Part shown: positions 31,617 to 35,479 of the stretch, piece by piece
How the letters are laid out: each line of letters opens with the position of its first letter
Position numbering within the stretch: the first letter of the stretch is position 1
Origin: Planctomycetota bacterium
GTDB taxonomy: Bacteria > Planctomycetota > MHYJ01 > JACQRL01 > SBBU01
Length of the DNA: 36,308 bases
Assembly: GCA_016206485.1 (NCBI GenBank)
Contig: JACQRL010000385.1
Coordinates: forward strand, 1-36,308
Direction: 5' to 3'
Notes under the pieces: generated by a model
What the model was told of the DNA's origin: nothing
The model's database searches: none
Seen by the model: only the letters and a program-made list of their open reading frames with translations
Position numbers and translations under genes: made by a program

Positions 31617-34151
31617 CTACACCTTAGAGCTCTCCAAAAATTCCATTGTCTTTCTTAGTCTTCTGCTCAGCATCGAAGCAAGTTCGATGACCAGATCAGG
31701 ATCCTCTTTTGCAAGTCTCCTAAAGTCATCTCCATTAAGACTCAGGCATTTTGTGTCCTCCAAGGCCCGTACAGTCGCTGATCTTACCTGCCTGTCGAGT
31801 ATCGACATCTCCCCAAACGCCTTGCCCTGATCAAGCTCTGTAACCTGCAGTACAATCCCATCATCTTTTTTTGTTTCAACCCCTACCTTACCGGATATTA
31901 TCAAAAACAGGGTGTCACCAATTTCTCCCTGTGAAACTACAACTTCCCCTTTAGAATAATTCCTGACAATGAGGGATTCAGCAAGAGTGAACAGCTTCTC
32001 AATAGATATTTCCCTGAAAACATCAGTTGATTTAAGAAAAACTATTTTCTCCGCACTTGTAAAAGAATGCGGTTTCGGCAGAGTCTTATTATCACTCATA
32101 ACAACCTCCTTAACAACCTTGGTGACATCAACTTTTGCTCTCTGTAGAATCTGCTCTCTTGTATTATCTGAAAGCTGAAGCCATTTTCTAAACACAGAGA
32201 GAGCAATTATCGATCTAAGCAATTTATTGCTTGAATCATATATATTCAGAACAGCCCGATTTTGATCATCTATTGATATATCCTTTTTGTCAGCAAAAAA
32301 GGTCTCTTTAAGCTCCGGTGAAAGATTTATCTTGAAGATTTTTATAGTGTATTCCCTTAGTTTTGGTTCGTTATGATACAAAAAAGGGACAAGAGACAGC
32401 AGGTCGGCTTTATTGTTCACGTATAACCAATGAGTCAAGGTGATGCTCGTCCACGCCGAGATCTCATCATCCAGCACATCAATTAAAGTCCTTGAAAAAT
32501 CAGAACTGCCATTTTTTGCCAATGTTCTAAATTGTTTGAGACTTATTATGTGCTCGTTTCCCCATTTTATAAATTCATCTGACATCGTTCCGGTTCGACT
32601 TCCGGAACTGAAATGAACACGTAATATTTCCTGATAATCAGAGGTTGAAAAATCTATTTTCTGAAGAAGGTCAACCGGTCTTGAAGCAAATGGAGACAGC
32701 TTCTGAAGTGCTGTCAGCCTGACTTTCTCATCGGAATCAGAAAGATATTTATCAAGTTCAGATGGATCCGATATTGTCAGATACTTCAACGCATGACTTC
32801 TTATTTCCGGATCAGCATCTGTTAGACCATCTCGTATATGGAATGTGCGCTCTTCAGCAGTAGGGTTATATCCATCCATAACATACCATGCTCCTTTGCG
32901 AATTACATTATCTGTTGAGCGAGTAAGCTCAATAACTCTTGATCGGAAACTTTGTATCGGATTTACCCTGAGAACATCAAGTGCAAGTATCAAATTATCA
33001 TTATCAGAAATATATGAGTTCAAAAGACTGCTTACAAAAAGAGGATCTACTGAATACAAGGCAAGAAGCAGCTCAACCCTGAGTGAATTTGAAATATCTT
33101 GTTTAAGTGAGTCTCTGCAGTACTGCTCTACACGTTCACCCGGAATAAGCGCCAGAATTGCCCTGAAAAGCAGCGGTTGTGTGTTATCCGGAAGCAAATG
33201 AAGTTCCTGAAGGATTTCAAGCGCAAAGTTTTTATCCAGTTCGTTGATCAAAAGTTTCGCGGCAGATTCAGCATGTTTTGAGTCAAAAGATTTAATAGAT
33301 CTCAGCAGGATCAGTTTTGATTCATCTCTGCATCTCTTTTCATAGTCATTATTCAGTATATACTTATTAACAGTCTCCCCAAGATCACTGTTTTCCGACT
33401 TTTCAAGGTCAGCCAGAAACCACGCCCAATGGAAATAACCGTATTCTATAAAACTTGCCATATAATTAGAATTGAAGTATCCGGCTACGCTTTTCTGCTT
33501 ACCCAAGATCTCATTGAGCTGGGATTGAGTAGCAATTTTTCTTGCGATTACCACATCCTGCAATGGCATTTTTGAAGTTTTGCTGAAGGTGATCGCCTCC
33601 TGTAGTTCATTTTCGCCAATCACGCCTGCATGCAGAAGAAGCTCACCAAGGTCGTGATAGCTGGAACCCACATCAATCTTTCTTTCACCAAGTTCTTTGA
33701 GTTTGGCAACTGCTCTTTGCAAAAAATCTTTTAGGAATGGCGAATGATCTGCATACATATCATGGGTGTAAGCAGATGCGACGGCATTGGCTACGTGTTC
33801 CTCCATCCAGTCATTATTTGTGGCAGTTTTATAGAAATCCCTCAGATGGTGGGCGATTTCATGCGAGACTATACGAGATATCGCTAATCGTCCGAACTTA
33901 GCAAGTTCATCAACCGAAGCCGCTCCATGTATGTCAGATAAATAGTACCACTGCAGCTTTCCCTGAATGGTATCAAGATCAGGTATGGAAAACGATATCA
34001 GCTTGCGATGTACATCGTAATAACAGAAAAAGCAATCCTCATATATGATTTTAAGATCAGGTGAGATCCCGACATCATATTTGCTCAGGACCGACAGAAA
34101 TTCATCAAATGCATTATGACAAAGTTTTATTAGGTCCTGTTTTAACGACAT
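31617..34151 (-). CDS. Multidomain protein: HEXXH metallopeptidase-like domain, MshEN-like insert, HEAT repeats, C-terminal cNMP-binding domain
   Basis: HEIAH (aa 97-101) plus EEHVAN; LGELLLHAGVI...L.EA (aa 167-219); LTDADPEIRSHAL and LSDSDEKVRLTAL; QGEIGD.LFLIISGKV, FGEMSILD...RSATVRA. No obvious TM segment or signal peptide. Confidence 0.85.
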   Translation of the reverse strand: MSLKQDLIKLCHNAFDEFLSVLSKYDVGISPDLKIIYEDCFFCYYDVHRKLISFSIPDLDTIQGKLQWYYLSDIHGAASVDELAKFGRLAISRIVSHEIAHHLRDFYKTATNNDWMEEHVANAVASAYTHDMYADHSPFLKDFLQRAVAKLKELGERKIDVGSSYHDLGELLLHAGVIGENELQEAITFSKTSKMPLQDVVIARKIATQSQLNEILGKQKSVAGYFNSNYMASFIEYGYFHWAWFLADLEKSENSDLGETVNKYILNNDYEKRCRDESKLILLRSIKSFDSKHAESAAKLLINELDKNFALEILQELHLLPDNTQPLLFRAILALIPGERVEQYCRDSLKQDISNSLRVELLLALYSVDPLFVSSLLNSYISDNDNLILALDVLRVNPIQSFRSRVIELTRSTDNVIRKGAWYVMDGYNPTAEERTFHIRDGLTDADPEIRSHALKYLTISDPSELDKYLSDSDEKVRLTALQKLSPFASRPVDLLQKIDFSTSDYQEILRVHFSSGSRTGTMSDEFIKWGNEHIISLKQFRTLAKNGSSDFSRTLIDVLDDEISAWTSITLTHWLYVNNKADLLSLVPFLYHNEPKLREYTIKIFKINLSPELKETFFADKKDISIDDQNRAVLNIYDSSNKLLRSIIALSVFRKWLQLSDNTREQILQRAKVDVTKVVKEVVMSDNKTLPKPHSFTSAEKIVFLKSTDVFREISIEKLFTLAESLIVRNYSKGEVVVSQGEIGDTLFLIISGKVGVETKKDDGIVLQVTELDQGKAFGEMSILDRQVRSATVRALEDTKCLSLNGDDFRRLAKEDPDLVIELASMLSRRLRKTMEFLESSKV
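32097..32112 (-). promoter_or_regulatory. Internal Shine-Dalgarno plus in-frame ATG ahead of the cNMP domain
   Basis: Minus strand TAAGGAGGT-TGTT-ATG (ATG at 32099 = Met685); would give a 160-aa product. Confidence 0.55.
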
Positions 34152-34174
34152 CCATCAAGAAAATAAAGTGTAAA

Positions 34175-34411
34175 TTAACCGCCGCCTTTTTTCCCTGAAA
34201 GCGCGCCGGTAAGTTCTTTGTTGAGCTGATCAGAAGGTAAATCCTTGACCTTATTGTGGAATTCTTTTATTGCATCAAGCTCTTCCTGAACCAGCTTGTC
34301 AAGAAATCCATACTTTGAAAGAGTTCCATCAAGATCCTTTACAGCCTCTTTCGCAAACTTCTTGTCATTAACCGCCTTTTTCACCAACTCCATTAATACT
34401 TCATCTGACAT
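34175..34411 (-). CDS. Small NHLP/Os1348-like putative RiPP precursor
   Basis: 78 aa; ELVKKAVNDKKF...KD...L..YG...L..EE..AI resembles nitrile-hydratase-like leader peptides; GGGAGGT RBS 4 nt before ATG; ends SGKKGGG. Confidence 0.7.
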   Translation of the reverse strand: MSDEVLMELVKKAVNDKKFAKEAVKDLDGTLSKYGFLDKLVQEELDAIKEFHNKVKDLPSDQLNKELTGALSGKKGGG

Positions 34412-34516
34412 AAATACCTCCCAAACTAATATTAAATTAAATCAACTCAAATCAACACAGATTCATATGATAAAAAGTAACCATTAAAAAGATAACAAAA
34501 GATTGACTGACCAGGT

Positions 34517-35479
34517 TTAGAGCGAAGCCCTGTTTAAGATATCCAAAAATAGTCTGGACTTTTTCATCCCTACCGCGCGCTTTAAAAAATTGCATGCTTT
34601 TCTCTTATATACAGAGGTCATTAATGCAACGTACATTAATGCCCCGCTGTCTTTTATTATATTCCTGATTTTTTTATGGGTATATCCGCGTGAGTCTGCG
34701 CCAGCAGCAGTTTTCAACAGTTTCTTAAGAATTCCCTTTTTAGATGAAGTTTTAAGCGCAAAGGCGACCGGTAATGTCACCCTGCCATTCTTCAAATCTG
34801 AGCTTGTTTTTTTACACCAGATATCATTACAATCGCTCGAAACCTGCAACGAAATCCCAAGATATCTCCCAAAAAGCGAGAGATTCTCAATCTGACTATT
34901 ATTAGCCCCTGCAAGGATGGCAGCCGCTCTGCAAAAAAGTTCGATCTGTGATCCGCTCTTCATAGCCACAATATTTCCCACATGCTGAACTGAAACGGTT
35001 TCACCGGCACTTGCGGCAAGATCCATTGTCTGGCCCTGCAGCATTTTCAATAAGGTCTTGTCAAAATCGTTCTTCAACCTGGCGACAATCTTTTCCGGCA
35101 CTGAATAGTATTTCAACCGCTCCAATGCGCTATGGCTGACGAAATTAAGGAGCTCAAACGCCGAAAGTACAAGAATATCCGAATCAATTTTTCTTAGGCG
35201 TGCCGGAATATCCCGATCAGCTATATCATCCAGTATGTCGGCGCCGCAATGCAGAGCCGTACAGGCGGATAGAAATGGAACTAATTTGGAATCCGCTTTA
35301 CAAAAGCAGGAATAAATTCTGAGCGGGAGTTCGACTGAAGGGATAAAATTATAGCCTTTCAATTTTGAACGGGAGACTTCCGCGCAAATCCGGAGAAATC
35401 TGGAACAGGCAACAGTTTCACACTCCTCATGAATCAGTTCATATAATAATTGAAAAGCGCGATCAAAATATGATTTCAT
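34517..35479 (-). CDS. Class I isoprenoid synthase-fold protein, ComQ-like peptide prenyltransferase
   Basis: First Asp-rich motif DILDDIADRD without the following RRG; GQ.MDL; KSGS; degenerate second motif QVSSDCND; SDLKNG..TLP; C-terminal SGALMYV.....YKRK. Confidence 0.8.
   Translation of the reverse strand: MKSYFDRAFQLLYELIHEECETVACSRFLRICAEVSRSKLKGYNFIPSVELPLRIYSCFCKADSKLVPFLSACTALHCGADILDDIADRDIPARLRKIDSDILVLSAFELLNFVSHSALERLKYYSVPEKIVARLKNDFDKTLLKMLQGQTMDLAASAGETVSVQHVGNIVAMKSGSQIELFCRAAAILAGANNSQIENLSLFGRYLGISLQVSSDCNDIWCKKTSSDLKNGRVTLPVAFALKTSSKKGILKKLLKTAAGADSRGYTHKKIRNIIKDSGALMYVALMTSVYKRKACNFLKRAVGMKKSRLFLDILNRASL

Follow-up and report, generated by a model that had tools for sequence, protein, structure and literature searches.

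A three-gene cassette in the window

The stretch of DNA analysed here (the window; 36,308 nucleotides of a Planctomycetota genome, contig JACQRL010000385.1) contains a compact cassette of three co-oriented open reading frames (ORFs) that fill positions 31617..35482 on the minus strand (Table 1). The first encodes an all-alpha enzyme with the isoprenoid-synthase fold, the second a small helical protein of 78 residues, and the third a protein of 844 residues that combines a HExxH motif, a helical-repeat region and a cyclic nucleotide (cNMP)-binding domain. The spacers measure 105 bp between the enzyme gene and the 78-residue ORF and 23 bp between the 78-residue and the 844-residue ORFs. In Bacillus, the enzyme ComQ, which has a degenerate motif pattern, prenylates a Trp near the C-terminus of the ComX peptide, and ComX is then sensed by the membrane kinase ComP. 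The first-pass annotation of the window had correctly described the three co-oriented genes and the strong ribosome-binding site of the second, and had proposed a new comQX-like system of a non-Firmicute in which a soluble protein takes the place of ComP and ComA. Our results suggest a peptide-modifying cassette of this general kind, with a putative substrate and a third partner that set it apart from the known examples.

The same gene set was found elsewhere. A pattern scan of 185,579 species genomes with a closer alignment returned two loci. On contig CAKKSE010000018.1 of a Nitrospiria metagenome-assembled genome (MAG; locus L045), the peptide, enzyme and large-protein genes are adjacent and co-oriented. 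On contig JAJYZD010000078.1 of a Bacillota MAG (L046), an enzyme gene truncated by the contig end abuts the gene, lying on the opposite strand, of a large-protein homologue with 966 residues. Five loci (L047-L051) came from a search of metagenomes in which the large protein was the query; one of them, L047, has the full trio and, upstream and in tandem, a second, partial copy of the peptide gene. The gene order is enzyme-peptide-large protein in the window and peptide-enzyme-large protein in L045 and L047. Since the gene set recurs at these places, the linkage of the trio is beyond chance. Judged from the sequences, the three genes have been kept together in at least three distant bacterial groups, the Bacillota MAG showing the enzyme and the large protein only. 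The trio peptide was not found in this MAG with the trio-peptide profile, the genome being incomplete and the contig ending in the enzyme gene. Conservation of the trio across genomes, a check that the first-pass annotation had named, is thus borne out, whereas a host outside the Firmicutes does not define the system, given the Bacillota MAG among the four carriers. The ORFs on either side of the trio in the window, L045 and L047 showed no kinase or regulator gene, in keeping with a replacement of ComP and ComA by the soluble third member. However, an ORF just upstream in L045 is histidine-kinase-like, as read from its sequence with no domain scan. In the Nitrospiria MAG, a second, weak match to the trio-peptide profile (L070, C33:9448-9561; E 5.1e-4, 21.9 bits) lies elsewhere, inside a 245-residue open frame.

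The enzyme has PF00348 as its sole Pfam match (71.9 bits, cut-off 27). It matches 48 solved chains of the isoprenyl diphosphate synthase (IPPS) fold at E<=0.001, the best of which is the geranylgeranyl diphosphate (GGPP) synthase 1wy0. The prenyltransferase Ord1 (9v4i) also ranks high among the solved structures, scoring 41 bits in the single-sequence search and 94.7 bits in the profile search, and no ComQ-named chain occurs among the best 60 Protein Data Bank (PDB) rows of the 50-sequence enzyme profile. The NCBIfam synthase models all score far under their cut-offs (best 76.2 bits vs. 450). An encapsulin-cargo role, raised by NF041169 as the top NCBIfam match, was rejected on its score (76 bits vs. 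450) and on the lack of an encapsulin shell gene nearby. Alignment with six canonical synthases, including one of the two paralogues of the same genome, showed that the enzyme retains DDIAD, GQxxD, K174, Q212, D216, D219 and D228. However, the GGKRxR block is absent, the RRG after the first Asp-rich motif has been removed by a 5-residue deletion, and the second motif reads S-D-x-x-D instead of D-D-x-x-D, with 6-7 residues of the following loop missing. GGKRxR, RRG and an intact DDxxD second motif are likewise absent from the three linked orthologues and present in the canonical paralogues. The genome, with a completeness of 80.55%, encodes two canonical polyprenyl synthases that score 177.7 and 152.3 bits, in comparison with 72 bits for the cassette copy.

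The altered second motif is conserved among relatives of the enzyme. Across a 50-sequence alignment, D84, D88, G149, D153, D216 and D228 are invariant, and D81, Q212 and D219 are nearly so. When the enzyme and its 149 best relatives were searched by regular expression for Q-x-x-S-D-x-x-D and its variants at the first position, Ser was found in 92 of the 150, Asp in 11, Thr in 7 and Asn in 5, and 28 were unmatched. Because the Ser form is so common, the motif reads as a family signature and not as decay. The earlier description of a broken second motif therefore holds for the loss of the first Asp (SDCND) and fails for the decay that it implied. An exhaustive HMMER search gave 3005 matches at E<=0.001, 498 at E<=1e-10 and 9 at E<=1e-30, the best relative having 39% identity. 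Word-indexed protein searches returned the enzyme itself with 2 weak matches and, for the other two proteins, only the queries themselves; a protein atlas gave low scores only (0.76). By its motifs, the enzyme is not an ordinary chain-elongating synthase, as had been proposed from the kept first Asp-rich motif and the missing residues of the isopentenyl diphosphate (IPP) site.

Comparison with a sample of 400 Bacillota genomes connected the enzyme to ComQ-type proteins. Seven further genomes with intermediate scores (148-164 bits) were found, and each of their loci (L059-L065) encodes, in this order, a peptide of 62-82 residues whose final or penultimate residue is Trp (as in ...PLGFWI and ...PTGLWA), an NDxxD enzyme and a large membrane protein. 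At two extended loci (L066 and L067), the membrane protein is a HisKA_3/HATPase_c kinase of 780-790 residues followed by a receiver-GerE (LuxR) regulator. The seven loci are comXQPA-type cassettes, the kinase and the LuxR regulator being Pfam-confirmed in two of them. Four derived features are common to the window enzyme and four comXQPA-type enzymes and are absent from the six canonical synthases: the loss of GGKRxR, a 4-5-residue deletion with loss of RRG and with LPxxW after the first motif, [NS]DxxD as second motif, and a 6-residue deletion after [NS]DxxD. These shared features support the earlier view that the enzyme is not an ordinary farnesyl diphosphate (FPP) or GGPP synthase. Between the N-terminal helices of the Trp-ending peptides (MNxExIAxLVHELVKNP) and the NHLP-like leader of the trio peptides there is a weak resemblance; none of the seven peptides matches NCBIfam at E<=0.1, and the two scanned against Pfam gave no match at E<=0.01. 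A member of the enzyme clade with N-D-x-x-D was also seen on the Priestia megaterium plasmid pFDU301A (NZ_CP045273.1; L058 6980..7987), where it is unannotated in the plasmid table and has 29.6% identity over 95% of the query.

All three trio peptides match NF038399, the Os1348 family of the NHLP clan, with a best E of 2e-14. The family assignment of the 78-residue protein rests on the orthologues, because the window copy is under the cut-off of this model. On this sequence evidence, the protein belongs to the Os1348/NHLP clan, and the profile search thus recovered the NHLP/Os1348-like leader described before. The match of the window peptide to PF14407 has an E of 0.009. The AlphaFold2 (AF2) model has five helices and a predicted local distance difference test score (pLDDT) of 80.1, which drops below 50 for residues 75-78. 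The top three Foldseek rows are all the Os1348 crystal structure 6lk7, at values that are not significant (E 2.8-5.0, template modelling score ~0.5), and the borosin precursor SonA comes next, likewise without significance. VIA-align placed 6lk7_A at rank 5 (Z 4.7, r.m.s.d. 6.2, 69 residues aligned), tied with unrelated helical proteins, and a phmmer search of PDB sequences found nothing meaningful (best E 0.095). The tails that follow the helical body are ALSGKKGGG in the window, NSQRRQFAM in L045, and NRRQGAPV and NRRQGGPV in the two copies of L047.

The 844-residue protein is modular. In its N-terminal domain, H97, E98, H101, E117 and E118 are invariant in 8/8 homologues. The AF2 model of residues 1-300, built from the eight homologues, has a pLDDT of 86.8 and a predicted template modelling score of 0.83. 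VIA-align, run with this model against 48,161 chains, showed for residues 1-280 a long series of matches to gluzincin catalytic domains, with the M1 aminopeptidase 6oiu_A first (Z 8.8, r.m.s.d. 4.2, 167 aligned), followed by 1z1w_A (Z 8.0) and thermolysin 5a3y_A (Z 7.7). Foldseek found nothing at E<=0.001 for the N-domain in the PDB. Among the eight members, weak Pfam peptidase matches were to M78 in four (best E 0.072) and to Zn_peptidase in two (E 0.062). An insert at residues 165-221, additional to the features described in the first-pass annotation, superimposes on the c-di-GMP-bound N-domain of MshE (5htl_B; Z 10.1, r.m.s.d. 2.2, 61 aligned, 28% identity) and on PilF (8pdk_A; Z 9.1), and Foldseek gives the MshE-type fold a probability of 1.00 over 57 columns. 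Its score for NF053729 (cut-off 38) is 35.7 bits in the whole protein and 37.7 bits in the N-domain fragment, both under the cut-off, and of the eight homologues only the window copy matches this model. The modelled insert thus has the fold of the solved c-di-GMP-bound MshE-N-type domains and may bind this ligand. The first residue of what we take to be its MshE-type motif is Asp, where we would expect Arg.

The middle and C-terminal regions agree in part with the earlier description of a HExxH/HEAT/cNMP protein. HEIAH is present, and the cNMP domain scores 79.7 bits with PF00027, which was found in 6/6 homologues scanned; the FGEMS...RSAT stretch is presumably the phosphate-binding cassette of this domain. 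The HEAT repeats are under the cut-off in the window protein (HEAT 20.1 bits, HEAT_2 15.8 bits), whereas HEAT_2 is above it in the orthologues of L045 (47.8 bits) and L047 (40.2 bits). The highest 19-residue hydropathy mean is 1.66, suggesting no clear membrane segment. With the help of the models, we read the N-terminal part of the protein as a zincin-like peptidase domain, of predicted activity, that contains an MshE-like insert; HEAT repeats and, last, a cNMP sensor come after it.

The four other metagenome loci, L048-L051, contain homologues of the large protein, with the N-domain and the cNMP domain confirmed in three and L050 too short to show the latter; no such enzyme or peptide occurs in the DNA available around them. 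The homologues of L048 and L049 have ~560 residues, with the zincin-like N-domain, the cNMP domain and no HEAT match, and the 389-residue homologue ORF of L050 shows the N-domain only. Because the homologues of L048-L050 do not stand beside an isoprenoid-fold gene in this DNA, the comparison suggests that the peptidase-cNMP core is a wider family.

Neighbourhood and spread of the cassette

Table 1 Positions of the cassette genes and of the features in and around them
Feature	Position in window	Strand	Basis and remarks
ComQ-like all-alpha (isoprenoid-synthase-fold) enzyme gene	34517..35479	-	320 residues from ATG; 321 residues from an in-frame TTG at 35482
First Asp-rich motif region DILDDIADRD (D81, D84, D85, D88, D90)	35210..35239	-	Translation; DDIAD is residues 84-88
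Pseudo-second Asp-rich motif QVSSDCND (Q212, S215, D216, D219)	34823..34846	-	Translation
Os1348/NHLP-clan precursor-like 78-residue protein gene	34175..34411	-	Helical folded body and C-terminal tail ALSGKKGGG; ORF, NF038399 match, orthologues, AF2 model
Ribosome-binding site GGGAGG	34417..34422	-	5 nt before the peptide ATG; sequence
844-residue protein gene	31617..34151	-	Order: zincin-like N-domain, MshE-N-like insert, HEAT repeats, cNMP-binding domain
Metal-site motif HEIAH (residues 97-101) to E117 E118	33798..33863	-	Translation; homologue alignment
MshE-N-like (c-di-GMP-motif-like) insert, residues 165-221	33489..33659	-	NF053729 match and VIA-align
Best-scoring HEAT stretch, residues 441-490	32682..32831	-	Within the helical-repeat middle region; under cut-off
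Cyclic nucleotide-binding domain, residues 730-816, with FGEMS...RSAT	31704..31964	-	PF00027 79.7 bits, cut-off 27.5
Promoter-like TTGACG-16-AATAAT (10/12)	35488..35515	-	Consensus match only; immediately 5' of the enzyme gene
Terminator-like hairpin with T-rich tail	31557..31569	-	Consensus match only; 48 nt past the stop of the 844-residue gene

The promoter-like and terminator-like elements listed in Table 1 are consensus matches of kinds that shuffled sequence also yields, with 15 promoter-like sites observed vs. 10.4 +/- 3.1 and two terminator-like hairpins observed vs. 3.0 +/- 1.9. The genes flanking the cassette are opposite in orientation and unrelated to it: two encode membrane-type proteins with CarboxypepD_reg, one an EamA transporter and one a Memo-like protein. 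The CarboxypepD_reg domain is in two proteins of ~400 residues (26648..27865 and 30323..31564, both on the plus strand). Directly beside the cassette, an ORF that runs off the end of the window (35517..36308, plus strand) has no Pfam match. A gene for an adenylate/guanylate cyclase with a CHASE2 domain lies 21 kb from the cassette (8236..10404, plus strand; CHASE2 119.1 bits, Guanylate_cyc 76.4 bits), and the organism should therefore be able to make a cyclic nucleotide. HEAT-repeat proteins are encoded just 5' of the cyclase (3600..5156 and 6453..8168). Elsewhere in the window are a 1660-residue ORF with no Pfam family at E<=0.001 (18269..23251, minus strand) and housekeeping genes, namely an Mla-type lipid-transport operon (MlaD, ABC ATPase and MlaE; 13866..16308, minus strand) and the haem genes for uroporphyrinogen decarboxylase and ferrochelatase (24357..26378, plus strand). 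Parts or the whole of the stretch are present in five groundwater-metagenome DNA runs from two studies, and no RNA sequencing run containing it is listed.

Searches of related genomes showed that the enzyme is sparsely distributed. In the same class, where 40 relatives were searched, no enzyme match apart from the query itself exceeded 40.1 bits (27% identity); 33 of the 41 genomes of this sample match at E<=0.001, and all of these matches read as canonical synthases. At the level of the phylum, 69 of 401 genomes, the window's own included, match the 50-sequence profile at E<=1e-25, with a best non-self score of 116.8 bits vs. 326.7 bits for the enzyme itself. This phylum check covered the 30 loci fetched for the best rows. 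The S-D motif occurs in none of the 39 non-window ORFs taken from these loci together with the own-genome paralogue, 36 of which have DDxx[DE], the ORFs of L017, L021 and L005 being unmatched by the regular expression. In a Nitrospirota sample, the enzyme matched in 1 of 401 genomes, the carrier itself, and the samples of 61 genomes around each of the two other carriers likewise gave a single match, the carrier. The spread across phyla is therefore patchy, which suggests that the cassette is accessory and moves horizontally.

Proposed function and alternatives

We propose, with a probability of about one half, that the cassette works in the manner of ComQ and PalQ: the enzyme would modify a short dibasic tail borne by a folded, leader-like peptide, and a peptidase gated by a nucleotide would be the third partner. 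The three genes would then form a self-sufficient unit for a ribosomal peptide and be kin to the peptide-prenylation systems ComQ/ComX and PalQ/PalX. The enzyme would have kept its allylic-diphosphate site, formed by the first Asp-rich motif, GQxxD, K174, Q212 and D216/D219. Because the IPP site is lost, it would transfer a prenyl group to an acceptor instead of elongating a chain. The helical body of the 78-residue protein would be a docking domain for the enzyme, and the flexible tail of ~9 residues, ALSGKKGGG in the window and dibasic in all orthologues, would be the part that is modified. As there is no Trp, the acceptor cannot be an indole, and a Lys or Arg nitrogen, a Ser oxygen or the C-terminus might, more speculatively, take its place. 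The soluble 844-residue protein would most likely be the maturation peptidase, its gluzincin-like HExxH...EE domain severing the tail from the leader-like body. The HEAT repeats may hold the peptide, and the C-terminal cNMP domain, here perhaps together with the MshE-like insert, may gate the peptidase. The reaction, the binding and the regulation are all predicted from the gene content, the conserved linkage, the family signatures and the predicted folds.

A number of observations weigh against this proposal. The main unexplained point, and at the same time the main source of interest, is the absence of Trp. The window peptide has no Trp and no Cys, as the earlier description of a Trp-less precursor had it, and Trp is likewise absent from the tails in L045 and L047. 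The only recurring element of the tails is the dibasic pair (KK or RR) with a following small or Gln residue; they are otherwise poorly conserved. To our knowledge, all characterised ComQ-type enzymes prenylate Trp, in peptides that are then sensed by membrane kinases. The Os1348-family score of the window peptide itself (E 3.6e-6, 27 bits) is under the NF038399 cut-off of 40, and alignment of the trio peptides with the Trp-ending peptides by hhalign was weak (probability 24%, E 8e-4, 42 columns over the N-terminal helices). No exporter or immunity gene is linked to the cassette, and the loci with context number only four (the window, L045, L046 and L047). Around the enzyme-clade member on the P. 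megaterium plasmid, out to 7 kb, neither an Os1348-like ORF nor a Trp-ending peptide nor a HExxH/HEAT/cNMP gene could be seen. In the large protein, the gluzincin Z-scores of 7.7-8.8 are in the middling range for helical models on the tool's own scale, and no Pfam peptidase family matches the window N-domain at E<=1.

The position of the enzyme is a further point of this kind. In a quick tree of 101 rows, computed with an unfinished search, a midpoint root and several long branches and not including authentic ComQ, PalQ or StheQ, the seven comXQPA-type enzymes form their own clade (support 100), whereas the window enzyme falls in a separate clade of 77 rows (SH-aLRT, a likelihood-ratio branch support, 96). 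On the side of the proposal, the four linked enzymes with a neighbouring large protein are scattered through this clade. Rooting on the canonical clade could still let the two non-canonical groups be relatives of each other. The enzyme also has Ser at the site of an Asn of ComQ and StheQ that is implicated in Trp placement (10.64898/2026.08.29.745113). StheQ itself could not be placed by its published residue numbers: the spacings suit both clades, and the K-to-Q spacing of 38 does not assign it to either because it is also found in comXQPA-type enzymes. The argument was dropped.

Prediction of an enzyme-peptide complex gave a score of 0.60, in comparison with 0.00 for the best of three controls, with a contact agreement of at least 84% between runs and a partner pLDDT of at least 75. 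For calibration, 58 of 80 solved complexes scored at or above the mark, as did 2 of 110 mismatched pairs; these counts are only approximate here as our own alignments were supplied. Seven of those 80 solved complexes and both of the passing mismatched pairs pass with a score of 0.60 or less. The prediction was rated as weak support, and its weakness counts among the points against the proposal.

The likeliest alternative is that the enzyme prenylates a small molecule, or converts it in another way, like the indole prenyltransferases Ord1 and XiaM. The small helical protein would then not be a substrate; it would assist the enzyme or the large protein as a partner or chaperone, or regulate one of them. 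The lack of Trp and Cys, the poor conservation of the tail and the rank of Ord1 (9v4i) among the best solved matches all suit this explanation, as does the report that Os1348 is a stable dimer, for which no modification is demonstrated in the available text (PMC7726476). However, the tandem duplication of the peptide gene in L047 is typical of precursors, and the published related enzymes with the same derived features adjoin peptides that are their substrates. The dibasic tail, moreover, resembles the PalX core DNVRRFFW (PMC10853753), and no other genes of a small-molecule pathway are linked at any of the four loci. We regard this alternative as unlikely, while giving it more weight than the other alternatives.

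A second alternative, somewhat more doubtful, keeps the enzyme-peptide pair of the proposal and reads the 844-residue protein as an intracellular receptor or effector of the modified peptide that replaces ComP and ComA, its HExxH domain being regulatory or acting on other targets. The protein occupies the slot of the kinase and regulator in comXQPA-type cassettes, HEAT repeats are binding modules, two parts of the protein resemble nucleotide sensors, and the shorter homologues of L048-L050, which lack HEAT repeats, occur away from any such enzyme. On the other hand, the invariance of the metal-site residues in all eight homologues argues for catalysis, and in the Os17 cluster, too, an Os1348 peptide occurs together with a predicted HExxH peptidase (PF13485; PMC7726476). 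The peptide has no signal sequence and no linked exporter, so a sensing loop would be without an obvious input. Chance placement of an ordinary FPP/GGPP synthase or a decaying copy beside unrelated genes is very improbable: PF00348 as the sole Pfam match and 1wy0 as the best solved match would fit it, but GGKRxR and RRG are absent, the genome already has two canonical synthases, six alignment columns do not vary among 50 relatives, the same neighbours are found in other phyla, and the canonical ORFs of relatives are DDxx[DE] in 36 of 39, with three unmatched by the regular expression and none S-D.

Returning to the modification of the dibasic tail, a more specific form of the proposal can be stated, which we consider a speculative and improbable extension. 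Enzymes of the S-D-x-x-D clade would prenylate a non-indole acceptor in the dibasic tail of a scaffold protein of the Os1348 type, and the cytoplasmic zincin would release the lipidated tail only with cAMP or cGMP (and here perhaps c-di-GMP) bound. The product would be a lipopeptide signal inside the cell, or a membrane anchor, under second-messenger control and not an exported pheromone. If the proposal is true, the known chemistry by which ribosomal peptides are prenylated would be broadened by a substrate without Trp, a matter of interest for peptide lipidation tools, and peptide maturation would be tied to cyclic nucleotide signalling through a new peptidase architecture. The large and uncharacterised S-D-x-x-D clade (498 relatives at E<=1e-10) would gain a testable function, and the Os1348 family would gain a second type of tailoring enzyme.

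Comparison with known systems

The cassette resembles ComQ/ComX/ComP/ComA and the comXQPA-type loci in having an isoprenoid-synthase-fold enzyme with the first Asp-rich motif and a pseudo-second motif, in the loss of GGKRxR and RRG with the same two deletions, and in a neighbouring small peptide gene whose product has a helical N-terminal part and a short tail. The comXQPA-type peptides, however, have Trp at or next to the C-terminus and their enzymes NDxxD, whereas the window has SDxxD and no Trp. In the two comXQPA-type loci checked, the partners are a HisKA_3 kinase and a LuxR regulator, in place of which the window has the soluble HExxH/HEAT/cNMP protein. The two groups of enzymes fall in separate clades of the quick tree; authentic B. 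subtilis ComQ was not in the comparison.

A published arrangement of enzyme and peptide close to that of the window is PalPXQ of Paenibacillus alvei (2023), which consists of a histidine kinase, an NHLP-type precursor with the core DNVRRFFW and an all-alpha prenyltransferase dependent on a C-terminal Trp (PMC10853753). According to the same source, ComQ keeps the first Asp-rich motif and lacks the second, the adjacent peptide PalX is the substrate of PalQ, the NHLP domain enhances the modification, and the PalQ-PalX complex was predicted and then shown (PMC10853753). The two systems are alike in that an NHLP-type precursor with a short core, RR-containing in PalX, stands beside an all-alpha prenyltransferase. 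They differ in the strict need of PalQ for a C-terminal Trp and in its histidine kinase partner. PalQ was furthermore annotated as a terpene synthase and forms a cluster of its own, and its site residues D89/D93, Q197 and D200/D204 have another spacing (PMC10853753).

StheQ, a ComQ homologue of Sphaerobacter thermophilus, farnesylates W68 of the adjacent 69-residue protein StheX, in which residues 1-59 are ordered and residues 60-69 are flexible (10.64898/2026.08.29.745113; preprint, August 2026). Its site residues are D85/E86/D89, K174, Q212 and N215/D216/D219, and the pseudo-second Asp-rich motif (pseudo-SARM) is NDxxx in both ComQ and StheQ (10.64898/2026.08.29.745113). StheQ/StheX resembles the cassette in having a ComQ homologue outside the Firmicutes next to a small protein of ordered body and flexible tail, and by published residue numbers the window residues D84/D85/D88, K174, Q212 and S215/D216/D219 correspond closely. 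In contrast, the window has S215 for N215 and no Trp for the farnesylated W68, and a HExxH/HEAT/cNMP partner is not mentioned in the available part of the preprint (10.64898/2026.08.29.745113).

The Os1348-Os1351 cluster of Pseudomonas sp. Os17 joins Os1348 with a GNAT acetyltransferase, the predicted HExxH peptidase Os1350 (PF13485) and a SagB-type dehydrogenase, with efflux genes after them (PMC7726476). It shares with the window an Os1348-family small helical protein with a flexible C-terminal tail and a linked predicted HExxH peptidase. However, its tailoring enzymes are of the GNAT and SagB types, its description as available includes no isoprenoid-fold enzyme, HEAT or cNMP domain (PMC7726476), and the window N-domain has no PF13485 match at E<=1. 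Ord1 and XiaM of Streptomyces are all-alpha IPPS-fold prenyltransferases that act on a small-molecule indole (PMC12510300). They share the IPPS fold, the first Asp-rich motif and a pseudo-second motif with the window enzyme and are among its best solved matches. They differ in their small-molecule substrate, in a precursor peptide not being described in the available text (PMC12510300), and in the second motif, which is QIRADL in the alignment with the window enzyme.

In the literature searched, no description of the trio of enzyme, peptide and HExxH-HEAT-cNMP protein was found; ComQ was not found together with a HEAT repeat or a cyclic nucleotide, and together with NHLP only in the PalQ paper (PMC10853753). 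The earlier view of the cassette as a candidate new system is thus narrowed by PalPXQ (PMC10853753) and by the StheQ preprint (10.64898/2026.08.29.745113). An NHLP-type precursor with an all-alpha prenyltransferase is already known from PalPXQ, and a non-Firmicute ComQ homologue from StheQ. What is new here is the variant itself, in which a Trp-less peptide is combined with a predicted peptidase partner.

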